32,000 bases of DNA from Gemmata obscuriglobus (GCF_008065095.1 NZ_CP042911.1:1650001-1682000), one strand, 5' to 3'; shown: positions 10,040-31,797, counted from the stretch's first letter. Made by a program: numbers and translations. Notes: a model not told the origin generated them from the sequence alone.

Positions 10040-10370
10040 ACGTGGTTTTCCAAGGGAATCGTCCCGCACGCTATCAGTGCCCGTCAGCAAGGGCAAGTCC
10101 TGACTGTGAACCCTGTATTGGTCCCGGCCACTTGACAAACTGTGGCATGTATTACGGTAACGAGCGCCGGCCATCGCGCTCGCGGCCGTTCGCGACTCGC
10201 TACTACCAGGTCATGACGCGGAGTCAGTGGATGCCGGCGCGGGTCGGAATGGTGATTGAGACACGGCATGCATCGCGCGCGGACGACCGTAAAACGCACC
10301 GGGAAACCGGGCCGGGAAACACTTGGCACGGCTCGTGCATCGGGAGCACGCAACCGCCGTACAATCCCGC

Positions 10371-15327: not shown

Positions 15328-16584
15328 GTGGACACCGTGTACCCGCACTGCGCCGGGTTGGACGTGCACAAGGATACCGTGGTCGCGTGCGTCCGGCACC
15401 ACGATGGCGGCAAGCGGGCTCGCCAGGAAGTGCGCACCTTCGCCACCCACACCCGGGCCCTGGAGGAGCTGGCCACATGGCTGGCGGCCGAGGGCGTCAC
15501 CCATGCGGCCATGGAATCGACCGGGGTGTACTGGAAGCCGGTGTTCAACGTCCTCGACGGCCGGTTCACGCTCCTGCTGGTGAACGCCCAGCACATCAAG
15601 CAGGTACCCGGGCGCAAGGCCGACGTGGCCGACTGCGCCTGGATCGCCCAGCTGCTCCAGCACGGGCTGCTGACCGCCAGCTTCATCCCACCGACCCGCC
15701 AGCGCGAGTTGCGGGATCGGACCCGGCACCGGTCCCAACTGGGGGCCGAGCAGACCGCAGCGGCGAACCGGGTCCAGAAGGTACTGGAGGACGCCAACAT
15801 CAAGCTGGGGAGCGTGGCCAGCGACGTGCTCGGGGTGTCCGGCCGGGCCATGCTCGACGCCATCATCGCCGGGCAGGACGACCCCGCGGTACTGGCCGAC
15901 TTGGCCCGGCGCCGGATGCGGGGGAAGATCCCGTAGCTCCGGGAGGCGCTCCGCGGGCGGGTGACCGAACACCACCGGTTCCTACTCAAGGTGCTCCTGG
16001 AGCACATCGATCAGCTGGATCGGCTGGTGGCCCAACTGGATGCCCGGATCGCCCAGCTCACGGCTCCGGACGTCGAGGCGCTGAACCTGCTGACCACGAT
16101 CCCTGGAATCCAGAAGCACACGGCCGAGGTGCTGCTGGCCGAGATCGGGCCGACCGTCGACCCGTTCCCGACGGCCGGGCGATGCGCAAGCTGGGCCGGG
16201 ATGTGCCCCGGCAACAACGAGAGCGCCGGGAAGCGGCGGACGGGACGCACTCGGCGCGGGAACCGGTAGCTCCGACAGGCCCTGGTGCAAGCCGGGTGGG
16301 CCGCGTCCCACTCGAAGAAGACGTACCTGGGCGCCCGGTACCGGCGGATGGCCCGGCGGCGCGGCGCCAAGCGGGCCCTGCTGGCGATCGGGCATACCCT
16401 ACTGGTGATCGTGTATCAGGTGCTCCGCCATCGGGTGGCATACCAGGAACTCGGAGCCGACTTCTACGACCGGCTCCAACCCGAACGGTTGGCCCGCAAC
16501 CTGGTGCACCGTCTGGAGCAACTCGGACACAAGGTGACCTTGGAGCCAAGCCCGACGCCCGAGCCGGCAGCACTACCGGAGTAA
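15328..16584 (+). pseudogene. IS110-family transposase (DEDD N-domain plus C-terminal Ser domain) interrupted by two in-frame TAG codons
   Basis: Three track ORFs (15328..15936, 15961..16269, 16285..16584) are all in the same frame (1 mod 3). Read through, they give one typical IS110 transposase: GTG start after GAGGAGGA, then VDTVYPHCAGLDVHKDT, MESTGVYW, KADVADCAWIA ... KIP*LREALRGRVTEHHRFLL ... SWAGMCPGNNESAGKRRTGRTRRGNR*LRQALVQAGWAASH. The TAGs are at 15934-15936 and 16267-16269. Confidence 0.85.
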
Positions 16585-16682: not shown

Positions 16683-17342
16683 TCACTGCCGCCAACACTG
16701 GCCGCAGTTCCCACAGTTGACCCCGAACCGCTGACCGGCTGGGGCCTCGTTCGGGCACACCAGCGGCAGCGAGAACGTGGGCCGCGCGTCCCGCAGCGGG
16801 TCGTCGCGGAACACCAGGTTCCCGGCCACCGGTTCGTCGACCGCGGTCTGCAACCAGGCCACCCGCGCCCCTTCCGGGAGCGACTCGGGCATGCCCGTCT
16901 CCGCGTCCGCCGAATACCAGGCGCGGACGTTGCCGAACCCGGCCACCTGCGCCAGTACCGGCGTCATCGCCTCCACCCGCCACGAGCGGGTGTAGAAGTA
17001 AAACGTGGCGACCGGGCACCGGTGGAACACCGACGCCCACTTCGCGGCGTAAGCCGCGTCATAGAAGTCGCCGGACACGTGCACCCGCACCACCAGCGCC
17101 CCTTTGGAACGCACCTCGGCGACCATGCGATCGGCGAAGTCCGCCCGGCGGGACTGCCGGAGGCACCACCGCAGCCGGCGGCGCACCTTGTCGGTGCGGA
17201 ACCGCCCGCGGGTGGCGTAACACACCGACTCGCACACCTGCGACCGGCCCGGGCAGGTGCCGACCGCGGGCAGGTCGAAGTGGTGAATCGCCCGGCCCAG
17301 CTTGGCGTTGCCCAGCGCCAGTAGCGAACGTAACGTAGCCAT
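16683..17342 (-). CDS. Cys-rich phage GP88-like protein (family assignment tentative)
   Basis: Track ORF. ATG 17342 follows GAGGAcagag. MATLRSLLALGNAKLGRAIHHFDLPAVGTCPGRSQVCESVCYATRGRF..., ending CPNEAPAGQRFGVNCGNCGQCWRQ. The NxKLG...LPA..tCPG.S..C...CYA opening matches my memory of the GP88 domain family. Confidence 0.6.
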   Translation of the reverse strand: MATLRSLLALGNAKLGRAIHHFDLPAVGTCPGRSQVCESVCYATRGRFRTDKVRRRLRWCLRQSRRADFADRMVAEVRSKGALVVRVHVSGDFYDAAYAAKWASVFHRCPVATFYFYTRSWRVEAMTPVLAQVAGFGNVRAWYSADAETGMPESLPEGARVAWLQTAVDEPVAGNLVFRDDPLRDARPTFSLPLVCPNEAPAGQRFGVNCGNCGQCWRQ

Positions 17343-18255: not shown

Positions 18256-18483
18256 CTAATCGCCGGGCTCGGCAGCCCGAAGTGACTTCTCGACTTCCAG
18301 AATGACCTCGGCGGGGGACAGGCCGACGGCGCGCACGAGCCGGATGAACACCTCGATGGTCGGGGTGCGCTGGTCTCGCTCGAGGAGGCTCACGTACTCC
18401 CGCGTCAGTTCGGCTTTGACGGCCAGCAGTTCCTGGGTCATCTCGGCCTTGAGCCGCGCCTCTTTTAGCAGTTTTCCGAACAC
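18256..18483 (-). CDS. XRE-family helix-turn-helix transcriptional regulator (75 aa)
   Basis: GTG start at 18483. FGKLLKEARLKAEMTQELLAVKAELTREYVSLLERDQRTPTIEVFIRLVRAVGLSPAEVI is a canonical HTH_XRE/Cro-C1 pattern. Confidence 0.8.
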   Translation of the reverse strand: MFGKLLKEARLKAEMTQELLAVKAELTREYVSLLERDQRTPTIEVFIRLVRAVGLSPAEVILEVEKSLRAAEPGD

Positions 18484-19119: not shown

Positions 19120-19392
19120 ATGAAGTTCGAATCCGCACTCCCTCCACACCTGGAACAGTTCGTCAGGGACCAACTCGCGACCGGTCGCTTTCGGTCCGAG
19201 GGCGAGGTGGTTCACACCGCCCTGCATTTGCTGGAAGGGCAGGCCCATTCGCGCGAGGCCGACAGCGCCTGGCTCAAGCAGGAGTTGGACAAGGGGCTGA
19301 GCAGTCGGCCGGGCGAGCCCATCACCCGGCAGTTCTGGGACCAACTCCGTGCCCGGGTGCGCACGCGTGCGGGACGAGGTGATGGCGCCTGA
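19120..19392 (+). CDS. parD: ParD-family (RHH) antitoxin, second copy
   Basis: ATG 19120. MKFESALPPHLEQFVRDQLATGRFRSEGEVVHTALHLLEGQAHSREADSAWLKQELDKGL is collinear with the ParD at 7244-7516. Confidence 0.85.
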   Translation: MKFESALPPHLEQFVRDQLATGRFRSEGEVVHTALHLLEGQAHSREADSAWLKQELDKGLSSRPGEPITRQFWDQLRARVRTRAGRGDGA

Positions 19393-19714
19393 GCGGACCA
19401 TTCACAAGAGCGAGGTGGCGACCGCCGACCTCACCGAACTGGCGGATCACTTTCTCGAACGCGCCGGCCCCGCCGTCGCGCTGCGGTTCCTCGATGCGGC
19501 CGAGCACGCGTTCGAGCAACTCGTCGCGATGCCGCGGATTGGCGCCGTGCTCGGGCTCGACGAACTCCCGTACGAGGACATCCGGCGCTGGCAGATCGAC
19601 GGCTTCGGCCGCCTGATGATTCTGTACCGGGAAGTGGCGGACGGCGTTGAAGTGATCCGCGTCTTGCACGCTGCCCGCGACATTCCCGCGGTACTGCGGA
19701 CTGTACCGGCGTAA
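19382..19714 (+). CDS. parE: ParE/RelE-family toxin, second copy
   Basis: ATG 19382 overlaps the parD stop (19390-19392) by 11 nt. MAPERTIHKSEVATADLTELADHFLERAGPAVALRFLDAAEHAFEQLVAMPRIGAVLGLDELPYEDIRRWQIDGFGRLMILYREVADGVEVIRVLHAARD. Confidence 0.85.
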   Translation: MAPERTIHKSEVATADLTELADHFLERAGPAVALRFLDAAEHAFEQLVAMPRIGAVLGLDELPYEDIRRWQIDGFGRLMILYREVADGVEVIRVLHAARDIPAVLRTVPA

Positions 19715-19773: not shown

Positions 19774-20832
19774 TCAGTATTTCAGGACGTACGCCGGCGA
19801 GCGGCTGAGCCGGTCGCGGTTGCGAATGTAGCCAAGGGTGGTTCGCGGATCTGCGTGGCCGGCGAAGTCCTGCAGATCCACGATGTCGGCCCCGCGCTCC
19901 CGCGCCGTCGTCAGAGCCGTCACCCGGAACGAGTGGACGGTCACGTGCGGGTCCAATTGCAGTCGCCGGACATACCGCGCGACCAGCACCTGCACCGCCC
20001 GCCGCGACAGCGGGGCGGCGCGGAACCCTTCCCTTCCACCGCCTCGGGCCGTCCGCACCGGGCGGAATAGCGGCCCTGTCGCGCCCTGCAACCCGGCCGT
20101 TTCCAGCCACGCGTCGAGCCGCTCGAACGCCTCCGGATGCAGAGGCACACGCCTCTCCTTACCACCTTTTCCACGGATCTCCAGCACTTTGTGCCCGCCG
20201 CTGGTCTTATAATCTCCTACACGCAGGCGGCACAGCTCGCCCACCCGGCAACCGGTGAACGCCAGCACCGCGAGGAGCGCGCGATCCCTCACACCTTCGG
20301 GAGTCTGTGCAGATGTGGCGTCGAGAAGGCGGCGACAATCCTCCGGAGTCAGGGCCACCGTCTTACCATCGCGCGGTACCGGCGGCGCGGCCACGAAAGC
20401 GGTGTCGGCCGGATTCGGCCCCTCGTATCCGTACGCTCGCAGGTAGCCGAACAGGGATCGGACGACCGAGAGCTTGCGACTGATTGCCGCGTTCGTGAGC
20501 CCGGCGGCGAGCAACTGGTCGCGCCAGGCGGCGATGTGTCCGGGGCGGACGTGCGGCAATTCGTCCCACGCTCTAACCGCTATGCCAGCATGCGCCATGA
20601 ACTGGTTCAAGTCGCGGGCGTAGCCGGACCGGGTTTCGACCGAGGGCGAGCGGGTCAGCCACGCCGATACCGCCTCGGCGAGTTGGGAGCGGAGATCGTT
20701 AACGGACGGTAAACGCTGGTCGGGTGTGTTAAGGGTCGGGAGGTGGGTCACGGATAGTACGCGAAAAGTGTGTTTCGCGCAACAAAGCCACATCGTGCGG
20801 CATGTGTCAATGAACTTCAGCATTGGCAGCAT
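19774..20832 (-). CDS. Tyrosine recombinase/integrase (XerC/D-like); start codon uncertain
   Basis: Track ORF 19774..20841. N-terminal SAM-like core-binding region (SGYARDLNQFMAH..HIAAWRDQLLAAGLTNAAISRKLSVVRSLFGYL). Catalytic region RDRALLAVLAFTGCRVGELCRL, KGGKERRVPL, HSFRVTALT, AGHADPRTTLGYIRN (R..K..HxxR..H..Y). Candidate starts are ATG 20832, 20823, 20793 or GTG 20751, and none has a clear RBS. Confidence 0.85.
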   Translation of the reverse strand: MLPMLKFIDTCRTMWLCCAKHTFRVLSVTHLPTLNTPDQRLPSVNDLRSQLAEAVSAWLTRSPSVETRSGYARDLNQFMAHAGIAVRAWDELPHVRPGHIAAWRDQLLAAGLTNAAISRKLSVVRSLFGYLRAYGYEGPNPADTAFVAAPPVPRDGKTVALTPEDCRRLLDATSAQTPEGVRDRALLAVLAFTGCRVGELCRLRVGDYKTSGGHKVLEIRGKGGKERRVPLHPEAFERLDAWLETAGLQGATGPLFRPVRTARGGGREGFRAAPLSRRAVQVLVARYVRRLQLDPHVTVHSFRVTALTTARERGADIVDLQDFAGHADPRTTLGYIRNRDRLSRSPAYVLKY

Positions 20833-20939
20833 GTATCTCAATATACTGTGCGCGGTGAATTGACAACGCTCGTAATGCTTGACCGGCTTCTTGGTTTATG
20901 TCAGGGTTTGGCTGCTTGTCACAACACACGGAGGCTGCC

Positions 20940-21197
20940 ATGCAAATCGAACACGTCATCCTCGGAAAGGGTGGCCGACTGGTGATCCCGATCACAATGC
21001 GTAACGAGATCGGAATCCAGGCCGGCGACATTCTCGTGCTGGAGTCGGACGGTGACAGCCTTCTGGTTCGCACCCGCGATCGGGTACTGCGCGAGGTGCA
21101 GGCGTCCTTTGCCGACATCGTACCAGCGGATGTGCTGCTATCCGATGAGCTGATTGCCGAACGACGTGCCGACGCCGAGCGTGACTGTCGGAACTGA
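20940..21197 (+). CDS. vapB: AbrB/SpoVT-fold antitoxin (VapB/MazE-like)
   Basis: ATG 20940 follows GGAGGctgcc. MQIEHVILGKGGRLVIPITMRNEIGIQAGDILVLESDGDSLLVRTRD is a SpoVT-AbrB swapped-hairpin pattern. Overlaps the PIN gene. Confidence 0.8.
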   Translation: MQIEHVILGKGGRLVIPITMRNEIGIQAGDILVLESDGDSLLVRTRDRVLREVQASFADIVPADVLLSDELIAERRADAERDCRN

Positions 21198-21570
21198 CAC
21201 CGTCCTGGACGCCTCGGCCCTCCTCGCGTTGCTCCGGTCCGAGCCGGGCGCTGCGCGTGTCGCGGCCGCACTCGACGGCGCGGTCATTTCGGCGGTGAGC
21301 CTAGCCGAAGTGCTCACCAATGTGGCTGCTTACGGCAAATCGCACGCTGTGACCTCCGCAATCTTGCGGCTACGACTGCCGGTGATTCCGTTCGACGAAG
21401 TGCAGGCCGGCCACGTGGCCGACTTGCCGCAACCGCCCCACGCCGCACGTCTGTCATTGGGCGATCGGGCATGCCTGGCGCTGGGGCTCGTTTATGGCGT
21501 GCCGGTACTCACCACGAACCAGGCCTGGGGGGCCTTTAATACTGGCGTTCGCGTCGAGATCATCCGTTGA
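21181..21570 (+). CDS. vapC: PIN-domain toxin (VapC-like)
   Basis: GTG 21181 (17-nt overlap with vapB; the track offers 21154). VTVGTDTVLDASALLALLRSEPGA...ISAVSLAEVL...LSLGDRACLALG...VLTTNQAW follows the PIN acidic-residue pattern. Confidence 0.8.
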   Translation: MTVGTDTVLDASALLALLRSEPGAARVAAALDGAVISAVSLAEVLTNVAAYGKSHAVTSAILRLRLPVIPFDEVQAGHVADLPQPPHAARLSLGDRACLALGLVYGVPVLTTNQAWGAFNTGVRVEIIR

Positions 21571-21692
21571 GTGCCGGTCACACTGCACATGGTATTCCTC
21601 TGGCGGCGCGCGCTTGACCGGGAAGCGATCCCCAGCAACTGGTTAGATCTGCCCCACGCTGTCGTATATATCGCATATTATAATAATGTAAA

Positions 21693-21720
21693 TTGACATA
21701 TTTTAATATAAATGTATTAT
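21693..21720 (+). promoter_or_regulatory. Near-consensus sigma70-type promoter inside a strongly AT-rich patch
   Basis: TTGACA (21693-21698), 16-nt spacer, TATTAT (21715-21720) with TG just upstream. It is embedded in about 90 bp of almost pure A/T (21660-21745), 87 nt upstream of ATG 21807. Confidence 0.45.
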
Positions 21721-21806
21721 ATATAAATAATGAATCAATCACTGCGATTGTTTCCGCTGCTGCTAAAGCACCGCTGTAACGAGTTGTGGAACTGTGAGAG
21801 GGGAGT

Positions 21807-22589
21807 ATGGATCCAGTTAAGGTGAATGTCGGCGACTTCGAGACGAGTGAAAAGGCTCTTAAAATCTTCTTCCGTAATAACGCCAAGAAATTTCCAGATG
21901 GTGTCAGTTTAAACATCGACCACCGTCAATCGGACGGGGCGATCGAGGTGACCCTTTGGAGTTACAAGTCCGAGCAGTCGCACGTTGCCGAAGCCAAAGA
22001 GCAGTTGCAGAAAGATTTCAAACTTTCATTCGGCCCACTTCAGAAAACTGGTCGCGGGTCGACGTACTACTTCACCGAACAGAAGGTGAGCGCGGACGAG
22101 TTCATCGCCTTTCTGAAACGGGTCGATCCCAAAATCGACTCCAAGCTGATCGATTCCTTCAAGCGGGACTACGACGCACTCGAAGCCGAGCGGAAAAAGA
22201 AACCGCCTCAGGTCCCAACCGATGTTCTGGGAAGTGTTACGATTGGGTTGCGAGACAAGTTCGAAGCAGCGGCAGTCGCGCTCGACACACTCTCGGGTGG
22301 CGCGGCGTACGGTAACGAGGCCCATACGCTGTTCTTCCAGGCACTCGCCCAGGTGCGGAGCGGGGCGAGGCCGGAGGCCGTCGTGCGGACGCTCAAGAGC
22401 GCGATCACCGCCCTCGATGCGGAGGCGAGCGAAGGCACCGGCACTGGACCGGCCTCGAAAGTGAGAATGCACTTGGTCGGATTGCAAGGGGTGCTTGCGG
22501 AGACCCTGAAAACCCCGGTCGAGGCGACCGTTTCTGCGGGAGCCCCCGCCGTTGGAAGGCAATCCCAGCGGACGTCCCTATCAATTTAA
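21807..22589 (+). CDS. Orphan hypothetical protein (260 aa) with a low-GC 5' half
   Basis: Track ORF. ATG follows GGGGAGt. MDPVKVNVGDFETSEKALKIFFRNNAKKFPDGVSLNIDHRQSDGAIEVTLWSYKSEQ... The first ~400 nt are visibly less GC-rich than the Ala-rich helical 3' half. No family recognised. Confidence 0.6.
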   Translation: MDPVKVNVGDFETSEKALKIFFRNNAKKFPDGVSLNIDHRQSDGAIEVTLWSYKSEQSHVAEAKEQLQKDFKLSFGPLQKTGRGSTYYFTEQKVSADEFIAFLKRVDPKIDSKLIDSFKRDYDALEAERKKKPPQVPTDVLGSVTIGLRDKFEAAAVALDTLSGGAAYGNEAHTLFFQALAQVRSGARPEAVVRTLKSAITALDAEASEGTGTGPASKVRMHLVGLQGVLAETLKTPVEATVSAGAPAVGRQSQRTSLSI

Positions 22590-22731
22590 TAATTCACGGA
22601 CAGATGGCTCGACGCGACCCGCGCAGTTGACCTCAGATCTCTTGGAAGGTGCGGGACTCGTCCCCACAGGTCTACATCGAGACCGAGCGGTTCGTAGCCG
22701 TGATTCGAAACGCGATTGGGCAATCGGCGAG

Positions 22732-24993
22732 TCATTCCTTTGGCTCGGTTCGCCAGGTCAGCACCCGCGCGCCTTGTTCGGCGATTTCCGAAACGGTCAG
22801 CCCCGACCGCAGACCGGTACCGTACATGGCACGTTCCAGCAACTGGGCGATGGGAGCCTGGGCTGCGTACCCCCGCTGCTGGCCCCCCGGCTGGGTAAGT
22901 AGACCGAAGTCCACTGGAGGGTTGGTCGGAGCGGTAACGATGGCCACCAAAGTTTCCGGCCCGAACGGCGGCTCGTTGCTGATCCCACCGACCACTGTGG
23001 TGAACGATGCCCCCGGCTCCAGAGCTTTGTTGAGTTCATTGCGCGCCGGGTGGAACAGGGTCACCCGGTACTCCGGATCGACTATCAACAAGGTTACCTC
23101 CAGGCGTTTGGTCGAACTGGTGTTGGTAACGCGGAACGAGATCCGGTCCCCCGGACGGAACGCCCACCCGCCTTTTGGCCGTTCGAGAACCTGGCCGGGG
23201 TCGTTCTTGGTCCGGTGCACGAGGACTTCGATCTTCACCTCCGCCCCCAGGGCACCGCGGCCTCGCTCGGCCTCCAACCGCACCCCCACGTCAACCAGCG
23301 CTCGGGCGCGGTGAATCGTCTTCAGTTTGGCGACTAGCGCCGCGCCGAATTGTTCAGCGTCCAGCGCTGGCAGTAGTACGGGCAACACACGGCCCGACAC
23401 CCCAACCAACCGTGCCTCGCCCGCCGACGCCCGTACCAGGAACTGTGCCGATGCCTCGTCGGCCACCAACTCGAACACCCCTGTGTCCGCTTTGGGCAGC
23501 GTGCGGAGAGCGTCACCGATACATCGAATGACTTTATCCCGCTCCCGCTGATCGGCCGGTACCGCCAACCGCAACCGGCCGACCGAGTAATCCACCGCCG
23601 TCACTTCGCACAACCCGTGCATGGGGAGCTCAACCGGTTTGGCCGTTTTGTCGTATTCGGTCGCCGAGACGACCGATTCCAGCGGGCGGGTCTCGGTCAC
23701 ACGGGCATATCCCACCGCGCGGGGGCGTTCCTTCTCTCCGGGCGGCGAGTACACGCGTAAGACGCTCCCGGGCGTGATCCCATGCAGGTCCCCAACGTTA
23801 ACCACGTGTTCGCCCCGAACGCGGGCGAGCGTAAGCGTCGGCCGGGCCGGCTTATTAGTGCCCAACACGACCCGGTCCTGGCCCGCCCCCTCGGTGCTCG
23901 GACTCGGCGCTCCTTGCGGCCGCGCGAGGTATCCGGCCTGCACTCGTCGGGTCAGCTCGCGGTAAGTGAGTGGCGCCCCCGAAGCGGCCGACTGTTCGAG
24001 CTCGCGCACCAACGAGTAGGTCAGCAGCCCGTGGTATTTCGCTCCGGGCGAGTCAGTTGGTTGGAGGCACTCGGGAGTGGTCTCGTACTCCCGGCAAGCG
24101 AACGTCGCCACCAGGAGTTCATTCGCCATTCCGGGAGTCAGAGAGGATCCCTTGGCACGCTGTTCAGGCGCTGGCCTTCCGGTACGCATGGCCGCCCGCC
24201 CGCGCGCCTTGGCCAGTTCCGCGGGCGGGACTAGCACACCGCCCGGGAGTTGCCGCACGACCTCTCCTTCACGATTCATCGAAGCCGCGTGGCAGCAGTC
24301 GAAGACTGCCCAGACGTACGCCTTCTTGGCAGTAATGGCGGCCAGCCAGTCCCGGATCTCTTTGTCAGCGATGGCGTTGGGCACCCGCTCCTTGCGATCC
24401 TTCCACGGCCTCACATCGGCCGGTAGGAAGATCTCGTCGATCCCGTCCGACTCGGGGGCGACCGGGTCCGGCGGGTCAGACTCGGGCTGGCGATCCCCGT
24501 GCCCGGCCAGGAGCACGACCACCTGGTCGCCGGGGCGGGCGGCTTCGGCCAGTCGCTTGAACTCGCGGGCGATGCTGGACCGGGTCGGCCGTAACTCGGA
24601 CTTGCCCTCATCCTCGGTCAAACAGACCACGTTTTCAGCCGGGAACCCGTATCGCTCGATGAGGGTGGTCCGCATGAGCCGGATGTCGTTGCCGGGGCCG
24701 CTCAGGTGGCTCGCCGGGGCCAAGTGATCGTACTTCGTGACCCCGACGAGTAGAGCCCGTTTGCCCACATCCATGGCCCGTGCGCGCGGAACGAACTCGT
24801 TCCGCGTTTTCTCGTCGAGCGTCACGGCGGCAGCCGACACCCAATTGGTCTCAGCCGACGGAACGGCAGGCTCGACGCGATGATGCTCACAAACCGGCAA
24901 AAGGTGAGTTGAGGTGAGGCCGAATCCCAACCCACCGAGGATGCTCGCCAGGACGCCGAGAGCGACGTTTCGGCGGACGCGATTGTGAAACAT
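22732..24993 (-). CDS. Membrane-anchored caspase-family (peptidase C14) protein with a DUF4384-like C-terminal domain (753 aa)
   Basis: ATG 24993 follows GAGGAatcggc. N-terminal anchor is RRNVALGVLASILGGLGFGLTS. Caspase core is RALLVGVTKYDHL...GPGNDIRLM...VVVLLAGHGD (catalytic His)...VWAVFDCCHAAS (catalytic Cys). The C-terminal VKIEVLVHRTKNDPGQVLERPKGGWAFRPGDRISFRVTNTSSTKRLEVTLLIVDPEYRVTLFHP fits the DUF4384 pattern. Confidence 0.9.
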   Translation of the reverse strand: MFHNRVRRNVALGVLASILGGLGFGLTSTHLLPVCEHHRVEPAVPSAETNWVSAAAVTLDEKTRNEFVPRARAMDVGKRALLVGVTKYDHLAPASHLSGPGNDIRLMRTTLIERYGFPAENVVCLTEDEGKSELRPTRSSIAREFKRLAEAARPGDQVVVLLAGHGDRQPESDPPDPVAPESDGIDEIFLPADVRPWKDRKERVPNAIADKEIRDWLAAITAKKAYVWAVFDCCHAASMNREGEVVRQLPGGVLVPPAELAKARGRAAMRTGRPAPEQRAKGSSLTPGMANELLVATFACREYETTPECLQPTDSPGAKYHGLLTYSLVRELEQSAASGAPLTYRELTRRVQAGYLARPQGAPSPSTEGAGQDRVVLGTNKPARPTLTLARVRGEHVVNVGDLHGITPGSVLRVYSPPGEKERPRAVGYARVTETRPLESVVSATEYDKTAKPVELPMHGLCEVTAVDYSVGRLRLAVPADQRERDKVIRCIGDALRTLPKADTGVFELVADEASAQFLVRASAGEARLVGVSGRVLPVLLPALDAEQFGAALVAKLKTIHRARALVDVGVRLEAERGRGALGAEVKIEVLVHRTKNDPGQVLERPKGGWAFRPGDRISFRVTNTSSTKRLEVTLLIVDPEYRVTLFHPARNELNKALEPGASFTTVVGGISNEPPFGPETLVAIVTAPTNPPVDFGLLTQPGGQQRGYAAQAPIAQLLERAMYGTGLRSGLTVSEIAEQGARVLTWRTEPKE

Positions 24994-25075
24994 GCCGATT
25001 CCTCAAGGGGTCAAGAGGAGCAAGGGTAACGCCGGTTAGCATCGCCCATGCGTTTTACTCAATCATCGGCCCGAT

Positions 25076-28000
25076 TTATCTCCAGTCGCCAGAGAGAACG
25101 AACGCCGCCCAGAAGTGTGGGGGCAGGACCTCCTTACCGTCTTGACCTTCGGGCCGCAGCCCGCCCCGCTGGCTATTGGTCAACATCCACAACTGGGCCT
25201 GCCGCAGGGCTTCCGCTTTGGACACGTTTTTTTTGGTATCCCACAGCCGGGAGTAGAACTCGCGCATCAGTTGGTGAGTGTGCTCGTCCTTCACCGCCCA
25301 AAGGCTGGCCACCACGGTCTGGGCGCCGGCCGTCTGGAGGCCTCGCTGCAACCCCAGCACACCCTCACCGCCGGCTACCTTCCCGCGCCCGGTGTCGCAC
25401 GCGCTGAGCACCACCAACTCGGCGTTGCTCAGATCTAGTTCGCCGGCCTCGAGGGCCGTCAGGATGGCCTGCTCCTTGGGAGTGCCGGGTGCGTTCACCC
25501 CGGCGAATACTACCCCCGACAGGAGTCCCGGGTGCCGGCCCACTAGAAAGCGATCCATCTGAAAGCCTCGCACCGGCCGCTGGTCCGTGTCGAGAGCCGA
25601 TTTCTCGGTCTCGGCGGCGAAAAATCCATGTGTAGCTAAATGTAAGAATGTTTTCTTGGGCACTGCATCCACGAATGCGGTTTTGGTGGCTAGTTCCCCG
25701 CGCAGTACCTTGGGCGCCGGAGCATCAGGGAACGTCTCCTCGAACTGCGCCCGCAGGTCATTCACCTCGCTCTTGGATCCCGGCAGGCGGTCGTACGTGG
25801 GGACCCTGGGTAAGCGAGTGTCTGTCGGGGCGAGAGCGGGTTTGTCGGCGGGCTGCCCGAAGTCGATGCCACCGGCTAGCAGCAACCTCGGAGCGGACGG
25901 GCCAACCGTCTTCTTCGCCAGCACCTCGGGCAACAGGATCGGCACCGGGACCACGGCGAACGCATACTTGTGCAACAGGAACTTGTTCTCCTCATCCCCA
26001 GGCAGCGCGGCGAATGGCAACCCGTGCAACGGGCCGTCTGGTGAGATGAGCACCGTCTTGACACCATCGCCCAGGTGTTTAGCGAGAGGTTCCCAGACAG
26101 CCTTGCGGAGTTCGACCGCTGGGTCCGGGTTGCCAGCAGTCGGGAGGCGCCCGGATCCTTGGGTAGACCTCCATCGATCTACCAGCTGGGCAATCGGTTC
26201 CGATCGTCCAAGCGGCACCAGCGTTACCCCACCCTTACCCGGCCGCACTACGAACGCCAACAACCGCTGCTCGGTTACCGGTTCCTGCCTACCCTTCGTA
26301 GGCGGGCATATGTGCCAATACTCCCGGAAGTCGAGCAGGGTAGTACATTCGGGTACCGCAGCCCGGATATCGTCGCCGCCCAGTTCGCCCTTGGTACGGA
26401 ACACCTGATACGCCGCGCTCCGCTCCGATAATAACCGCTCTAACTCGGCCCGCCGCTCCCGTCGCCCTTGTAAATATGTCTTGAGATCCACTGACTCACA
26501 CGGTATCTCACCAGACGCGCTCGGGAGGGCGGCGGCGAGCAACTGGCGATCAACCACAGTCAGCTGACGCAGCAGGTCAGCAGTAGTTGGGTCCTTGGGG
26601 TCGCGGAGCGCACGAGCCCACCTCTGTCGAGCAGCCACCGCCCCCTTGAACGCCCCTATTCGGTGATACGTTGTTGACGCATCCCGGCCCGGATCAAGCA
26701 CCACCGAAAGGTACAACGAAATCGCTCTCTGTGCCTCAGCGGCCATAGAAAGTTGCTCGGCCTCGGCCTGACTGTTCGCCAATCGCGATAAATTGACCTG
26801 ATTTATTGCCAAAGATTCACCAGCCAATCTAATCGTATCGTGCGAAAGACTGTGACTCACTATATCAACAAGACATATATTATATAGGTATAGTGATATG
26901 TCGGGGTGGTCCTTGGGCAGGGCCTTGCGGCAGATGTCCAGTGCCTCCTCGTGGCTCTTCCGGGCACCCTCGAGATCCCGCAGGTCGCACTGCAAGACAC
27001 CCAGGTTGTTCAGGCTCCTGGCGATGTCGGGGTGACCCGCGGGCAGAGCCTTGCGGTAAATGTCCAGTGCTTCCCGATAGCTCCTCTTACATTCCTCGAG
27101 TTCCCGCAATTCGTGCTGTACGACACCCAAGTTGGTTAGGCTCAAGGCGATGTCGGGGTGATCCTTGGGCAGGGCCTTGCGGCGGATGGCCAGGGCCTCC
27201 TCGTGGCTCTCCCGCGCGGCTTTCAACTCCCCAAGCATCCCCTGCGCGGCACCCAGGTTGTTCAGGGTCGAGGCGATGTCGGGGAGAACTGCGGGCCGCA
27301 TCTTGCGGTGGATGTCCAGTGCCTCCTGGTGGCTCTTCCGGGCGCCCTCGAGATCCCGCAGGTCGTGCTGCGCGTTGCCCAGGTTGTTCAGGCTCATGGC
27401 GATGTCGGGGAGAACTGCGGGCCGCATCTTGCGGCGGATGTCCAGTGCCTCCTGGTGGCTCTTCCGGGCGCCCTCGAGATCCCGCAGGTCGTGCTGCGCG
27501 TTGCCCAGGTTGTTCAGGCTCATGGCGATGTCGGGGTGACCCGCGGGCAGGGCCTTGCGGCGGATGGCCAGTGCCTCCTCGTGGCTCCTCCGGGCGCCCT
27601 CGAGATCCCGCAGGTCGCGGTGCGCGACGCCCAGGTTGTTCAGGGTCGAGGCGATGTCGGGGAGAACTGCGGGCCGCATCTTGCGGCGGATGTCCAGTGC
27701 CTCCTGGTGGCTCTTCCGGGCGCCCTCGAGATCCCGCAGGTCGCGCTGCACGAGCCCCAGGTTGTTCAGGGTCGAGGCGATGTCGGGGTGATCCTTGGGC
27801 AGGGCCTTGCGGCGGATGGCCAGTGCCTCCTGGTGGCTCTTCCGGGCGCCCTCGAGATCCCGCAGGTCGTGCTGCGCGTTGCCCAGGTTGTTCAGGCTCA
27901 TGGCGACGCCGGGGTGGCCCGCGGGGAGGGCCTTGCGGCAGATGTCCAGTGCCTCCTGGTGGCTCTTCCGGGCGCCCTCGAGATCCCGCAGGTCGTGCTG

Positions 28001-29218
28001 CGCGACACCCAGGTTGTTCAGGGTCGAGGCGATGTCGGGGTGATCCTTGGGCAGGGCCTTGCGGCGGATGGCCAGTGCCTCCTCGTGACTCTTCCGGGCG
28101 CCCTCGAGATCCCGCAGGTCGTACTGCGCGTTGCCCAGGTTGTTCAGGCTCATGGCGACGCCGGGGTGGCCCGCGGGGAGGGCCTTGCGGCAGATGTCCA
28201 GTGCCTCCTGGTGGCTCTTCCGGGCGCCCTCGAGATCCCGCAGGTCGCGCTGCACGAGCCCCAGGTTGTTCAGGCTCATGGCGACGCCGGAGTGGCCCGT
28301 TGGTCGCATCTTGCGGCGGATGTCCAGTGCCTCCTGGTGGCTCTTCCGGGCGCCCTCGAGATCCCGCAGGTCGCGCTGCACGAGCCCCAGGTTGTTCAGG
28401 GTCGAGGCGATGTCGGGGTGATCCTTGGGCAGGGCCTTGCGGCGGATGGCCAGTGCCTCCTGGTGGCTCCTCCGGGCGCCCTCGAGATCCCGCAGGTCGT
28501 GCTGCACGAGCCCTAGATTTGTCAGACCGAACGCCACTAGCGGGTCATCTGCTCCTAGCCCTGCTTTCCAAATACAGACCGCTTTACGATAACCTTCTGC
28601 GGCCTCCTTTCGGTCGCCTAAGTTGGCTTGTAACAGCGCCAGGTTGTTGAGCGATCGCCCGAGATCCGGGTGCTGCACCGGCAATAATTTGCGACGAATC
28701 GCCAGAGCCCGCTCGTTCATTGCCTTTGCGTCATTGGTGTTCCCGAGAACCCCCTCGATACGCCCGACAGCATGCAGCACTTGCGCTATCTCTACCGTCT
28801 CCTCGCTAACAAATGCCCTATCGTACATCTCCAGTGCCGACCGCGCGATCGCGAGGGCCTTTTCCGGTGCAGTTATCTCAGCTTTCTTCACATTCTCCTC
28901 TGCAGTCAGTGCGGCGACGAGGGCCTTCTGTTTGTCGGTAGTCAACCCCGCGGCGGCCTCGGCCAGTTTGAGCGTGTGCTCGGCATCGAACGTGCGCCAA
29001 TGCTTCGGGCCGTCGATCTCCCGCGACAGCTTCGCGCACTTCGTGGCCGGGCCAATCGCCTCAGCAAACTTGCCTTCTCGAAGCAGCGCCGTCACCTTAG
29101 CTCCGGCCTCAGCACGTTGCTTGGCTCTCTCTGCCGACGGTTGCGCGGCCGTTATGGTTGGGCCGGCCACCAGATCGAACGCGAGCACCAGCCCCATCAC
29201 CAACCGGGAACCGCTCAT
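25076..29218 (-). CDS. Secreted TPR-repeat / CHAT-domain protease (1,380 aa)
   Basis: ATG 29218 follows AGGAGtgcgccc (the track start 29242 is a TTG). Signal-peptide-like MSGSRLVMGLVLAFDLVAGPTITAAQP. About 15 kinesin-light-chain-type 42-aa TPRs (NLGLVQRDLRDLEGARKSHQEALDIRRKALPKDHPDIASTLN). C-terminal CHAT domain has HLATHGFF (His) and VVLSACDTGRGKVAGGEGVLGLQRGL (Cys). Confidence 0.9.
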   Translation of the reverse strand: MSGSRLVMGLVLAFDLVAGPTITAAQPSAERAKQRAEAGAKVTALLREGKFAEAIGPATKCAKLSREIDGPKHWRTFDAEHTLKLAEAAAGLTTDKQKALVAALTAEENVKKAEITAPEKALAIARSALEMYDRAFVSEETVEIAQVLHAVGRIEGVLGNTNDAKAMNERALAIRRKLLPVQHPDLGRSLNNLALLQANLGDRKEAAEGYRKAVCIWKAGLGADDPLVAFGLTNLGLVQHDLRDLEGARRSHQEALAIRRKALPKDHPDIASTLNNLGLVQRDLRDLEGARKSHQEALDIRRKMRPTGHSGVAMSLNNLGLVQRDLRDLEGARKSHQEALDICRKALPAGHPGVAMSLNNLGNAQYDLRDLEGARKSHEEALAIRRKALPKDHPDIASTLNNLGVAQHDLRDLEGARKSHQEALDICRKALPAGHPGVAMSLNNLGNAQHDLRDLEGARKSHQEALAIRRKALPKDHPDIASTLNNLGLVQRDLRDLEGARKSHQEALDIRRKMRPAVLPDIASTLNNLGVAHRDLRDLEGARRSHEEALAIRRKALPAGHPDIAMSLNNLGNAQHDLRDLEGARKSHQEALDIRRKMRPAVLPDIAMSLNNLGNAQHDLRDLEGARKSHQEALDIHRKMRPAVLPDIASTLNNLGAAQGMLGELKAARESHEEALAIRRKALPKDHPDIALSLTNLGVVQHELRELEECKRSYREALDIYRKALPAGHPDIARSLNNLGVLQCDLRDLEGARKSHEEALDICRKALPKDHPDISLYLYNICLVDIVSHSLSHDTIRLAGESLAINQVNLSRLANSQAEAEQLSMAAEAQRAISLYLSVVLDPGRDASTTYHRIGAFKGAVAARQRWARALRDPKDPTTADLLRQLTVVDRQLLAAALPSASGEIPCESVDLKTYLQGRRERRAELERLLSERSAAYQVFRTKGELGGDDIRAAVPECTTLLDFREYWHICPPTKGRQEPVTEQRLLAFVVRPGKGGVTLVPLGRSEPIAQLVDRWRSTQGSGRLPTAGNPDPAVELRKAVWEPLAKHLGDGVKTVLISPDGPLHGLPFAALPGDEENKFLLHKYAFAVVPVPILLPEVLAKKTVGPSAPRLLLAGGIDFGQPADKPALAPTDTRLPRVPTYDRLPGSKSEVNDLRAQFEETFPDAPAPKVLRGELATKTAFVDAVPKKTFLHLATHGFFAAETEKSALDTDQRPVRGFQMDRFLVGRHPGLLSGVVFAGVNAPGTPKEQAILTALEAGELDLSNAELVVLSACDTGRGKVAGGEGVLGLQRGLQTAGAQTVVASLWAVKDEHTHQLMREFYSRLWDTKKNVSKAEALRQAQLWMLTNSQRGGLRPEGQDGKEVLPPHFWAAFVLSGDWR
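26897..28534. repeat. 13 x 126-bp near-identical in-frame tandem repeats (the TPR array of the CHAT gene)
   Basis: Unit boundaries fall at 26897, 27023, 27149, 27275 ... 28409, each starting (g/t)atgtcgggg. Units 27275-27400 and 27401-27526 differ at a single base by my reading. Variation is confined to a few codon blocks. Confidence 0.9.
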
Positions 29219-29272
29219 GGGCGCACTCCTGCAGGCTGTCAAAGAGAGATTCGATTCGTTGTCGTAAGCACG

Positions 29273-31069
29273 TCACTGGTGTCGGAATGCCACCCCATCG
29301 AGTACCGGCACGTCTTGCAACCGCTCGCGGAATTGCTCCAGCCGACGCTTCACCGGGCCACCGTCCGGGAACGACATCGCCCGGCTCAGGTCCCGCTCCC
29401 TGGCCCCTCCGGCGGCCACCTCGTCGGGCCGCACGCGCAGGAACAGCCCGCCCGGCTCCAGTGCCGGCCATTCGTCCTCGGTCGCCCACGACAACCGCAA
29501 CTCGTCCGGAGTTGGCGCGCGGTCGGGTCGGGCGCACATGAACACGAACTCGGTGCCAGCGGGCGGGAGCAATTCCGTGCCGGTTCCGGCACCCGGCCAG
29601 ATGGCCTCATAGGCGGTTGATCGCCGTTCGTACGTTTCGAGTACTTCTAACCGCCCGGCGCCGTTAACGTACACGAGACTGGCGTGCATTCCTGCGGGCA
29701 CCCGGAACCGCACCTGCAACTGGTCTCCGGTCTGAAGCGGCACGACCTCGGCCAGCGGTTTCGGATCGAACCCTTGCCGACGAACCAGCACGGTCAGGTT
29801 CGCATTCTCGCTGATCGTCGGCGTAGCGGCCGGGAGCGAGCGGACGGCGAGCCAGCGGCCACCGACCACCGCTGCACAGAAGAGGCAAACGAGCGCAGCC
29901 GCCACGACAACGCCCCGCCGCGTCCGGTACCACGGCACGCGCACCGCGTCCCGCACGGCCGCCGCAAACACCGCGGCCGAAGCGTGCCGCGCAGCTGGTT
30001 CGATCTCGAGCGCCTGTTCGCACGCGTTTCGCAGGCCGGTGGGGGCACCCGACCGGGCCAGGGCGGGCCGGGCCCAGTCGCACGCCCGCGCGCGGCGGAA
30101 GGCCGTGTTCAAATCCGAGTCGGGGTAGAGGGCCGAGCCGGTGAGCAGGAAGTACAGCACCGCGCCCAACCCAAACACGTCCGTACGCGCCGTGACCTCG
30201 CCGCCCTGCGCCTGTTCCGGGGACAGGTAGCCGGGCGTTCCGGCGGGACCGCCGGGTAACCCGTCTTCCCCGGCCCACGCCGGTCGGAACCACGCCACCC
30301 CGAAGTCGAGCAGTTTCGCCCCGCCCTGGCCGTCGACCATGATGTTGGCCGGCTTCACGTCCTGGTGGACCACGCCCGACCGGTGGGCGTGGTCCAGTGC
30401 CGCGGCCACGTCGGCCACCATCGCGGCGATTCGGGCCGGGTCGGGGCGGGTGTCCAGGGCGTACCGGCTCAGCGGGCGCCCCTGAACGTACTCCGTTACG
30501 ATGAACGGGCGCCCCTCGCACTCGCCCTGGTCGTAGATCCGGACGATGTGCGGGTGCTCCAGCCCCTTGAGGAGCTCGCCCTGACGGGCGAACCGCGCCC
30601 GCCAGTCCGACCGGGCCGTTCGCTCGGCCCGCATCCACTTCACCACGACCAGGCCGCGCCAATCCGGGTGGTAGCAGAGGTACACGTCCGCCTCGCCGCT
30701 CGCCGCAAGGTGGCTGTTGACGGGGTATCGGCCGATTTGTGCCGGGAGCGTCCGTTCCGCCGGAGGTTCGAGGCCGCCGTCCGTCGCGCCGGCGGGGGGC
30801 GGTCCGTCCGGGTCGGCCAGGCCCGGAAACCGGTTGAGGTACGAGTGAACGCTCGGCACGGTGAGCTGGTTGGCGACGTGCCGCTGGACGTCGATGGCGA
30901 TGAGCTCCTGGATCACGGCGCGGGCGAGGTGCGGCGGCGCCCGCCCGACCAGTTCGGCGATCCGGTCCCAGTTCGCCGGCCGCCAGTCTCCGTCAAACAA
31001 TTCCGCGAGCCGGTGGACCGCGAGTGCGTCGGCGGACGCGGCCGGCGCGGTCGAGGCAGAGTCGGTCAT
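29273..31069 (-). CDS. Transmembrane Ser/Thr protein kinase with a DUF4384-like extracytoplasmic C-terminal domain (598 aa)
   Basis: ATG 31069 follows AGGGGGAacg. The N-terminal [11 protein letters not shown]...LIAIDVQRH...YLNRFPGLA motif is common in planctomycete kinases. Kinase motifs are [28 protein letters not shown] and [12 protein letters not shown] segment is [23 protein letters not shown]. The C-terminal [53 protein letters not shown] is DUF4384-like. Confidence 0.9.
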
Positions 31070-31206
31070 CGTTCCCCCTTAGAACAACGGAACCGCCGCC
31101 AACCGCTGGCGCGGAGCGCCGCCCGACACTATCTCCCGAAAATGAAGCACAGTCAGTATAATCGGGGTCACAGTCATATCCAACACTCAACCTTAGCAGA
31201 GCGCCC

Positions 31207-31797
31207 GTGCAAAACGATGGCTCGGTCACAGACCTGTTGCTGCAACTCCGCTCGGAGGCCCCGGCGGTCCGGGACCGGGCCGCGGGGGAACTGCTCCAGC
31301 GCTACACCCCGGAACTGCTCGCGCTGATCGCCGGCCGGACGCAACCGCGGCCCCGACAGCGGGCGGACACCGAGGATGTGCTGCTGAGCTTCTACAACCG
31401 CCTCCGGCGCGGCACGTTCGACCTGGCGAACCGGGACCAGTTCCTGCACCTTGTCGTGAGCGTCGCCCTGAACACGGTGCGTGCGGCCGAGGGGCGTGAG
31501 CGGCAGCGGCGCGACGTGCGCCGGGGGCAACCGCTCGACGCACCTGAGGAAGGCGGCCGGGGGGTGGACCGGCCGGCCCCGGACGTCACTGCGGAGGTGG
31601 TGACCGAGGTCGCCGAGGAGATCGAGCGGCGGCTGACCGGGCTGCTACCGGAGTGCCGGGAGGTGCTGGTGCTGCGGCTCGACGGCCGCACGACGGAGGA
31701 TATCGCCCGGACGATCGACCGCACCCCACGCACCGTGGAGCGCCGGATGGAGTTGGTGCGGACGCTGTGGCGCGACGACATCCTGGAACCGAATTAG
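31207..31797 (+). CDS. ECF-type RNA polymerase sigma factor (planctomycete Sigma70_ECF type)
   Basis: GTG 31207. VTDLLLQLRSEAPAVRDRAAGELLQRYTPELLALIAGR...EDVLLSFYNRLRRG (region 2-like) and CREVLVLRLDGRTTEDIARTIDRTPRTVERRMELVR (region 4 HTH). Divergent from the kinase across a 137-bp gap. Confidence 0.85.
   Translation: MQNDGSVTDLLLQLRSEAPAVRDRAAGELLQRYTPELLALIAGRTQPRPRQRADTEDVLLSFYNRLRRGTFDLANRDQFLHLVVSVALNTVRAAEGRERQRRDVRRGQPLDAPEEGGRGVDRPAPDVTAEVVTEVAEEIERRLTGLLPECREVLVLRLDGRTTEDIARTIDRTPRTVERRMELVRTLWRDDILEPN

Follow-up and report, generated by a model that had tools for sequence, protein, structure and literature searches.

In the planctomycete Gemmata obscuriglobus, genes for two caspase-fold proteases that are predicted to act outside the cytoplasm, a TPR-CHAT protein and a C14 caspase, lie beside genes for a Hanks-type Ser/Thr kinase and an extracytoplasmic function (ECF) sigma factor. 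The locus occupies positions 22732 to 31797 of a 32,000-nucleotide stretch (NZ_CP042911.1:1650001-1682000), here called the window. Comparison with related loci showed a conserved extracytoplasmic core of two proteases, to which a Hanks kinase and an ECF sigma factor without an anti-sigma factor are often and specifically linked. The four-gene set recurs across planctomycetes and is probably one working unit. An earlier note, made from the window sequence by itself, had described a sigma/kinase signalling pair with the proteases as its cargo. The link between the two pairs is conserved, as that description implied, but the conserved core is the protease pair, and kinase and sigma factor accompany it in only a third to half of the loci.

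All four open reading frames (ORFs) called in the earlier note were found in place, with the following features (aa, amino acids; TM, transmembrane):

31207-31797, plus strand: ECF sigma factor gene, GTG start, 196 aa
31070-31206: divergent sigma-kinase intergenic region, 137 bp, with TATAAT on the plus strand at 31157-31162
29273-31069, minus strand: Hanks-type Ser/Thr kinase gene, 598 aa
aa 1-110 of the kinase, minus strand: conserved N-terminal extension
29954-30736, minus strand: kinase domain
29840-29923, minus strand: kinase TM segment (aa 383-410, after the kinase domain), a single hydrophobic segment
29279-29800, minus strand: kinase ectodomain, 175 aa, DUF4384-like and then a helical tail
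25076-29218, minus strand: TPR-CHAT gene, ATG start, alternative TTG start at 29242
29144-29218, minus strand: signal-peptide-like N-terminus of the CHAT protein, hydrophobic aa 14-33
26783-28864, minus strand: about 15 TPR_10/TPR_12 repeats
26898-28513, inside the TPR coding region: 126-bp (42-aa) tandem array, 12.8 copies, 83% matches, no indels
25085-26122, minus strand: CHAT domain
25628-25630 and 25397-25399, minus strand: CHAT catalytic residues H1205 and C1282
22732-24993, minus strand: C14 caspase gene, 753 aa
24910-24981, minus strand: caspase TM helix, hydrophobic aa 9-28
23884-24762, minus strand: C14 fold, with H165 at 24499-24501 and C234 at 24292-24294
22744-23238, minus strand: C-terminal DUF4384-like beta-sandwich of the caspase

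Conservation of the protease core and its partners

Eighty genome loci were fetched with a profile of the caspase family, further contexts were added, and annotation was done by tblastn and with iteratively built hidden Markov models. Neighbourhoods were counted in the 40 loci that extend at least 7 kb to either side, allowing 3 kb for a partner protease and 10 kb for a kinase. A partner caspase-fold protease was present in 31 of the 40 loci (TPR-CHAT in 21, a large C14 protein in 14). A kinase was present in 21, with the same ectodomain as the window kinase in 13, and an ECF sigma factor in 15. Kinase and sigma factor occurred together in 13 loci and all three, partner protease, kinase and sigma factor, in 10; two loci had none of them.

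The earlier note had staked its proposal on synteny in related genomes, and the four-gene neighbourhood indeed recurred, far above the control background, in the Gemmatales, the Pirellulales (Rhodopirellula, Novipirellula) and the Planctomycetales. Loci of the Isosphaeraceae had kinase, CHAT protein and caspase. In Acidobacteriota, the caspase adjoins different, TPR-type kinases, and in one locus (L035) it follows an ECF43-type sigma factor. The order of the genes varied as follows:

sigma, and divergently kinase-partner-caspase: window, L006, L007, L037, L084
sigma-kinase-CHAT-caspase: L028
CHAT-caspase-sigma-kinase: L042, L047
kinase-caspase-sigma-CHAT: L015
sigma-caspase-kinase-C14-C14: L020

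The control consisted of 80 metagenome loci (715 kb) around generic Hanks kinases. These came from a kinase-anchored metagenome scan, which gave only generic kinases because its search pattern derived from the kinase domain, and were hence used as the control. They contained 11 ECF sigma factors but no CHAT protein, no C14 protein and no kinase with the window-type ectodomain (Fisher P of about 8e-14 for CHAT and about 1e-12 for the ectodomain). Among kinase matches in the caspase-anchored loci, 22 ORFs had this ectodomain, compared with 0 of 92 control kinase ORFs. For the sigma factor, planctomycetes have on average about 40 ECFs per genome (PMC7826278), from which one within 10 kb is expected in about 11% of loci; the observed 15 of 40 exceed this (P of about 1e-5). 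In the reciprocal direction, the ectodomain alignments were too variable to seed a metagenome scan, and word-indexed protein searches were insensitive (3 and 5 proteins found), but both ectodomain-anchored matches with enough contig adjoin C14 and CHAT-type genes.

Two types of second protease are interchangeable. In the closest relatives, whose caspases are 61 to 65% identical to that of the window, the middle gene encodes a 1150-aa protein with a signal peptide, WD40 repeats and a C-terminal C14 domain with intact dyad; in L084 (61% identical) the sigma gene is followed divergently by kinase, WD40-C14 protein and caspase. TPR-CHAT and WD40-C14 thus share one design of signal peptide, repeats and C-terminal caspase-fold domain. 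Among the partners, 28 of the 39 CHAT proteins and 13 of the 24 large C14 proteins have signal-peptide-like N-termini, and many of the remainder appear to be truncated or wrongly started ORFs.

Kinase and caspase were also found fused. In Novipirellula sp. SH528, a single 1387-aa protein (L060:12236-16399) begins with a Hanks kinase domain and ends with a C14 domain, with a TM segment and a TPR-like region in between. Its gene lies directly after the caspase gene of the module, and its inside/outside arrangement equals that of the separate window proteins. A protein of the same kind is encoded at L063:3494-5954.

Unbiased clustering of all neighbouring ORFs gave no further recurring family, apart from a secreted protein of about 250 aa in some loci, and no gasdermin-like gene is present in the operon, as the earlier note had remarked. 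The secreted protein (L028:9044-9892, L065:7987-8757, L073, L016:409-1149, L051:1004-1738) is encoded between CHAT and caspase in L028 and is absent from the window; its C-terminus ('GDGDGDLD...VYD') looks like a pre-peptidase (PPC-like) domain. The WD40-C14 versions have a conserved 112-aa ORF without a Pfam match between sigma and kinase genes (L006:1243-1733, L007, L037, L084:4015-4353), which the window lacks. In a locus without kinase or sigma factor (L086:12544-15570, the same as L008), the caspase gene is followed by one for a 1008-aa protein with Trypsin, HEAT, Peptidase_C14 and FGE-sulfatase domains.

The four proteins and their genomic setting

Pfam confirmed the assignments of the sigma factor, Pkinase, TPR, CHAT and Peptidase_C14. 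The topology proposed earlier agrees with the hydrophobic segments predicted in kinase, CHAT protein and caspase, which are conserved in their homologues; everything except the kinase domain and the sigma factor is predicted to lie outside the cytoplasm.

The caspase (Peptidase_C14, 7e-17) belongs to a family of about 750 aa that is conserved over its whole length. In its AlphaFold2 model (mean pLDDT 80.8), a disordered linker joins the TM helix to the caspase fold, after which come middle domains rich in beta strands, a long helix and, at the C-terminus, a beta-sandwich. H165 and C234 (the latter in 'DxCHSG') are invariant in 30 homologues. The best sequence matches in the PDB were AtMC4 (1.7e-13), Yca1 and MCA2, and the top Foldseek matches of the model were AtMC4, AtMC9, GSU0716, Yca1 and MALT1 (probability 1.00); with the whole model as query, Foldseek reported the caspase domain only. 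By sequence and by fold the nearest solved relatives are thus metacaspases, and the C14 domain is metacaspase-like and closest to AtMC4, Yca1 and MCA2. D103 (in 'GPxND') and D232 (in 'DxCHSG') are also invariant among the homologues, and they fall at what we take to be the positions of the S1 aspartates of MCA2, a candidate mapping of an acidic S1 pocket that would confer Arg/Lys specificity. The caspase is 100% identical to a G. obscuriglobus protein that NCBI annotates with 702 aa; its start there is placed 51 codons further downstream, omitting 24841-24993 and with it the conserved N-terminal anchor. The 753-aa form is supported because the homologues keep the anchor and a GAGGAA Shine-Dalgarno site precedes it.

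The TPR-CHAT protein matched TPR_10 in 15 stretches (5e-123) and CHAT (PF12770) at 3.5e-63, with 214 bits against a cutoff of 24. Its dyad, His1205 in 'ATHGFF' and Cys1282 in 'LSAC(D/E)TG', is kept by every ungapped homologue. Public assemblies from short reads break within the 126-bp array of its gene, and the array yields long spurious antisense ORFs, such as one of 585 aa at 26893-28650 on the plus strand.

The kinase (Pkinase, 4e-34) retains its catalytic residues K144, D237, N242 and DFG. Its family has one fixed layout, in which an N-terminal extension precedes the kinase domain and a single TM segment leads to an ectodomain of 175 aa. Seventeen homologues share this TM segment and ectodomain, and across the family the ectodomain terminates in '...LR..L....EGVAF.H'. 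Other kinases near these caspases have TPR, WD40 or FGE-sulfatase ectodomains, domain types that are also fused to the partner proteases.

DUF4384 (PF14326), a family named in the earlier note, matched caspase and kinase below the gathering score of 27 bits, with 18.3 bits (E = 0.0026) for the caspase C-terminus and 15 to 16 bits (E = 0.016 to 0.025) for the kinase ectodomain. It was matched by 7 of 16 kinase ectodomains (best E, 3e-4), as the only recurring family among them, and several caspase homologues have precomputed PF14326 matches. An hhalign comparison of kinase ectodomain and caspase C-terminus aligned the 67-column DUF4384 core (local probability 64%, E of 6e-5). The predicted strand patterns of the two regions are similar; the ectodomain model was weak (pLDDT 54), too poor for a fold search. 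These sequence comparisons give moderate support to the view that both regions are DUF4384-like. Kinases and orthocaspases are both known to carry DUF4384 and FGE-sulfatase as accessory domains (10.1101/2025.01.12.632604; PMC7475262; PMC3501461).

The sigma factor matched Sigma70_ECF (3e-8, 34 bits) and r4_2 (4e-8), and all its NCBIfam matches were below cutoff (Sig-70_plancto1, 34 bits compared with 184). The gene that follows lies on the opposite strand, so that no co-directional anti-sigma gene comes after it, which fits the earlier picture of a sigma factor without a co-encoded anti-sigma factor. That picture had been modelled on EcfP/PknT, and this part of it did not hold. In ECF43, the DAED/DxxD of σ2.2 is replaced by an uncharged (Q/S)TTA with a phospho-acceptor Thr (PMC13147305, PMC8999054), whose phosphorylation restores the negative charge contacting the β' subunit of RNA polymerase (PMC13147305). 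The σ2.2 motif of the window sigma factor is D54-T-E-D57-V-L-L-S61, with both Asp residues of DxxD retained in the motif alignment, which rules out membership of ECF43. In the same alignment the Acidobacteriota sigma factor of L035 served as a positive control, with a true ECF43-type motif (QPTALVHE).

S61 (31387-31389) stands in place of the conserved Glu of DxxDxxQE. Among the sigma factors of the collected loci, 18 including that of the window have Ser at this position (DxxDxx[Q/L]S); 14 of these adjoin a kinase, 3 more have a kinase within 6 kb, and 1 lies at a contig edge. ECFs without kinase linkage in the same loci retain QE. Kinase-linked planctomycetal groups other than ECF43 keep a DAED-like motif with Ser or Thr nearby (PMC8999054), and Ser was proposed as the acceptor in ECF59/60 (PMC8103513). 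The window sigma factor answers to the description of such groups, being planctomycetal, adjacent to a kinase, without an anti-sigma factor and with a DAED-like motif with Ser nearby. A second, conventional ECF sigma factor (205 aa, QE-type σ2.2) is encoded at L169:3513-4568, corresponding to about 31988-33043 and thus mostly beyond the window. The protein encoded next, of 134 aa, has a TM helix at its C-terminus, and the pair is convergent to the module sigma gene. The 134-aa protein is a candidate anti-sigma factor, encoded in the operon of the other sigma factor.

The spacing reported earlier was reproduced: spacers of 54 and 82 nt separate the minus-strand genes, and the kinase gene is 137 nt away from the sigma gene. 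Each minus-strand gene has its own Shine-Dalgarno site, as had been described: AAGGGGGA for the kinase, AGGAG for CHAT and GAGGAA for the caspase. The CHAT start at ATG 29218 is favoured over TTG 29242 because AGGAG is located 8 nt upstream of it. Likewise, no terminator-like minus-strand site was found between these genes; the CHAT-caspase spacer has a moderately stable hairpin (-29.4 kcal/mol, z = -2.07) without a U tract. The perfect TATAAT noted earlier is present between sigma and kinase genes, and a minus-strand sigma-70-like site, TGGATA-16-TATACT, overlaps it. The equivalent intergenic regions of L016 and L076 contain a TCAGTATAA(T/C) box resembling the TATAAT region of the window. An exhaustive search of the three loci with the most similar sigma factors found no common bipartite ECF-type motif, only the TCAGTATAA(T/C) box, and the aligned sigma-kinase intergenic regions of close relatives have no motif in common with the window. 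The sigma-caspase intergenic region of L016 (L016:1883-2145) contains a near-perfect inverted repeat with arms of about 35 to 40 nt (GGCGCTTTGGAGTGCGGCGCTCGGCGCCGCTTTCT...). No Rfam family and no tRNA gene was found in the 32-kb window.

In G. obscuriglobus the module sits within an integrative conjugative-type element, which the earlier note had overlooked. An integrase, a relaxase and a type IV secretion system (T4SS) coupling protein are encoded on one chromosomal segment, in a contig of more than 1 Mb, together with other genes:

8858-10174: YhcG/DUF1016 nuclease
10323-13019: TrwC relaxase-helicase
about 15580-16584: IS110 transposase
16683-17342: GP88-like gene (phrog_1392)
about 18256-18441: helix-turn-helix gene
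about 19120-19714: ParD/ParE
19774-20841: tyrosine integrase
about 20940-21570: MazE-like/PIN VapBC
about 3.4-5.9 kb beyond the window end on the sigma side (L169:5210-7659): ParB and TraG/VirD4 coupling protein

The element genes recur in no other locus, and mobility is therefore a trait of the G. obscuriglobus copy and not of the family. Its location in the element suggests that the module is an exchangeable trait. Between integrase and caspase genes, the stretch 21500-22600 has a low GC content (0.57, compared with about 0.67 elsewhere) and strong sigma-70-like promoter matches, such as TTGACA-16-TATTAT at 21693-21720 upstream of a 260-aa ORF. Searches of Pfam, NCBIfam, PADLOC and PHROGs gave no match for this ORF (21807-22589), and none of the fetched loci contains a homologue of it. 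For these reasons it was rejected as a substrate or partner of the caspase, and it probably belongs to the mobile element.

How the module may work

The reading that we prefer, with a probability of roughly 0.5, is that the kinase senses a cue and phosphorylates the sigma factor, which would drive the kinase-CHAT-caspase operon, and that the proteases would then cut substrates in the envelope. An envelope or periplasmic cue may be read by the DUF4384-type domains of the kinase and of the anchored caspase alike. Phosphorylation would most plausibly occur at S61, in place of the Glu of σ2.2 that contacts RNA polymerase, and the activated sigma factor would raise transcription of the operon. The proteases, probably specific for Arg or Lys at P1 like metacaspases, would cut periplasmic or surface substrates, and in G. 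obscuriglobus the whole module would travel as cargo of the integrative conjugative-type element. Candidate roles include defence, remodelling of the envelope, the processing of surface proteins and the breakdown of proteins that are imported or hostile.

Several observations weigh against this reading. No ECF-type promoter motif was found, and the intergenic region has sigma-70-like -10 boxes instead. The DUF4384 assignments of the window proteins stay below the Pfam cutoff, with an hhalign probability of 64% and an ectodomain pLDDT of 54. Statistics give the association of Ser with kinases modest support (P = 0.04), and it may be no more than the mark of a single sigma lineage. The glycine-rich loop of the kinase (30680-30710, aa 120-130) is degenerate and has lost two canonical glycines relative to the LGxGGQxxVY of the closest homologues; because of this loss, nucleotide binding may be weakened, and the loop sequence leaves room for a weak kinase or a pseudokinase. 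The control loci were not taxon-matched, and the census relied on a naive method of calling ORFs. In about half of the loci the protease pair occurs with neither kinase nor sigma factor nearby, and the pair therefore works without them. The direction of signalling and the sigma dependence of the operon are both points that we infer from sequence. The earlier note had called the module kinase-gated, which presupposes a direction of signalling that cannot be read from sequence: parallel outputs, or signalling from protease to kinase, would agree just as well with the DUF4384-like domain in kinase and caspase and with the kinase-TM-C14 fusion.

Signalling might accordingly run the other way, though we think this rather improbable. 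The periplasmic proteases would be the input: the repeat-scaffold protease would capture a ligand, the anchored caspase would cleave or release the kinase ectodomain, possibly through a like-with-like DUF4384 contact, and the kinase, once on, would act on a sigma factor that activates a regulon elsewhere, in place of regulated anti-sigma proteolysis. Canonical ECF signalling is known to start with a periplasmic protease. The DUF4384-like domain common to kinase and caspase and the fusion, which unites both activities in one receptor, fit such a path, as does the lack of an ECF-type promoter upstream of the operon; in L015, L020, L042 and L047 the sigma and kinase genes lie inside the protease operon, as is usual for regulators. 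However, the pair often occurs without kinase or sigma factor and so must have substrates of its own, the ectodomain has no sign of a cleavage site, and the DUF4384 homology is weak. A more elaborate periplasmic relay is doubtful, to a somewhat greater degree. In it, the secreted repeat-scaffold protease (TPR-CHAT or WD40-C14) would capture an extracellular protein cue and activate the membrane-anchored metacaspase, which would use its DUF4384 domain to engage or cleave the DUF4384-like kinase ectodomain and so lead to phosphorylation of the σ2.2 Ser. If true, this protease-to-kinase-to-sigma path would take the place of anti-sigma proteolysis; a conjugative element could transmit it, and in occasional cases it would be condensed into one kinase-TM-caspase receptor.

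That the module is a mobile conflict or defence system is a similarly doubtful proposition. TPR or WD40 arrays would recognise proteins of invaders or competitors, the caspase-fold domains would be the effectors, and the sigma factor would add a transcriptional response, on the model of the caspase/CHAT systems of the Aravind group and of gasdermin- and Craspase-type systems. In G. obscuriglobus the module does have relaxase, integrase and toxin-antitoxin genes on its caspase side and genes for ParB and the T4SS coupling protein on its sigma side, but mobile-element genes are absent from all other loci. The sensor-like repeat domain of the partner is swapped between close relatives, and the 126-bp tandem repeat that makes up the TPR array was homogenised recently; yet conserved signal peptides and anchors put the proteases outside the cytoplasm, unlike known abortive-infection (Abi), gasdermin and Craspase systems. 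The caspase matches the PADLOC 'caspase' model at 8e-19, and caspase systems with a coupled ECF sigma factor have been described (PMC8195603), but the NCBIfam model of EACC1-type caspases gave 37 bits against a cutoff of 140, and no STAND NTPase, gasdermin or cas gene was detected (Death-like/EAD adaptors were not specifically searched for).

Mere proximity, with a sigma factor controlled otherwise (for instance by the 134-aa anti-sigma-like protein) and without a regulatory tie to the proteases, would suit genomes rich in kinases and ECFs (about 40 each of the latter; PMC7826278), a sigma density in caspase loci only about 1.6 times that in control loci, the convergent pair of conventional ECF sigma factor and small TM protein, and the sigma-70-like promoters in the window intergenic region, but it is very unlikely given a kinase ectodomain found only beside the caspase (22 ORFs against 0 of 92), the four components staying together through many rearrangements in three orders, the kinase-C14 fusion, the excess of ECFs (15 of 40 loci against about 11% expected, P of about 1e-5) and the position of the 134-aa protein in the operon of another sigma factor.

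Comparison with known systems

All components and several pairwise links are already known: kinase-linked planctomycetal ECFs, metacaspase-sigma operons, caspase-ECF systems and CHAT proteins near ECF54. No published description was found of the four-part exported module, although an earlier mention of C14 or CHAT in the supplements on ECF groups is possible; nor, those supplements aside, of the TPR-CHAT/WD40-C14 swap, the shared ectodomain or the kinase-caspase fusion.

Like the ECF43 pairs EcfP/PknT of Vibrio parahaemolyticus and EcfK/PknS of Xanthomonas citri, the window has an ECF without an anti-sigma factor beside a single-pass Hanks kinase with a periplasmic sensor, and its kinase domain, as in PknS, is preceded by a conserved N-terminal extension (PMC13147305). 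Window and ECF43 also share a proposed logic, in that σ2.2 phosphorylation would supply the charge needed for binding RNA polymerase. In contrast to ECF43, σ2.2 of the window reads DTEDVLLS, with the candidate acceptor Ser four residues downstream, the ectodomain is DUF4384-like and not TPR, and the linked genes encode proteases and not type VI secretion or polymyxin-resistance functions. ECF59, ECF61, ECF62 and ECF217 are closer, being planctomycetal, with an adjacent Ser/Thr kinase, no anti-sigma factor and a DAED-like motif (PMC7826278, PMC8999054, PMC8103513); the main texts mention no caspase or CHAT neighbours for them, though the supplementary group descriptions may. ECF54 resembles the window sigma factor in lacking an anti-sigma factor and adjoining a CHAT protease (its neighbours are CHAT, subtilase and carboxypeptidase genes), and proteolytic control was proposed for it (PMC8999054); compared by description only, it differs in being actinobacterial and not kinase-linked. 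Kinase-activated ECFs are understood for ECF43 only, and the Ser that replaces the σ2.2 Glu is a specific, testable candidate phospho-site for the kinase-linked sigma groups outside ECF43.

Metacaspase operons with sigma-70-family factors were reported in Myxococcus, Anaeromyxobacter, Haliangium and Sorangium, and many bacterial metacaspases have N-terminal TM helices or signal peptides (Asplund-Samuelsson 2012, PMC3501461). The window shares with these myxobacterial operons a metacaspase-type C14 gene conserved next to a sigma gene; it differs from them, as described, in adding a kinase, a second caspase-fold protease and a shared ectodomain, and in its phylum. In the EACC2/EACC1-caspase systems (Kaur et al. 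2021, PMC8195603), too, an ECF sigma factor shares its neighbourhood with a caspase domain and a repeat protein. They are described as counter-invader conflict systems with a coupled ECF sigma factor, a TPR (DUF1822) protein and EACC and TRADD-N adaptors (PMC8195603); the window proteins, unlike these, have export signals, and a kinase belongs to the set. EACC1 membership was rejected (caspase_w_EACC1, 37.2 bits compared with a cutoff of 140).

The TPR-plus-CHAT architecture and the caspase-fold effector proteases recall Csx29 of type III-E CRISPR (Craspase) and the proteases of gasdermin systems, a comparison drawn in the earlier note. Since the C14 domain is of the metacaspase kind, the likeness extends to architecture only. 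Csx29 is encoded with gRAMP/Cas7-11 and a CRISPR array and is cytoplasmic, whereas the window TPR-CHAT protein has a conserved signal-peptide-like N-terminus. On this ground, and with no cas gene among the annotated window ORFs (no dedicated CRISPR-array scan was made), Craspase membership was rejected; gasdermin-system membership was rejected with the neighbouring 260-aa ORF lacking a family match and no gasdermin found.

Bacterial caspase homologues are mostly discussed as cytoplasmic effectors of death or defence. The module is a widespread case of paired caspase-fold proteases predicted to act outside the cytoplasm, genetically linked to Hanks-kinase/ECF signalling, and this link is backed by a natural fusion. 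G. obscuriglobus is cultivable and has genetic tools, and the predictions are therefore directly testable.

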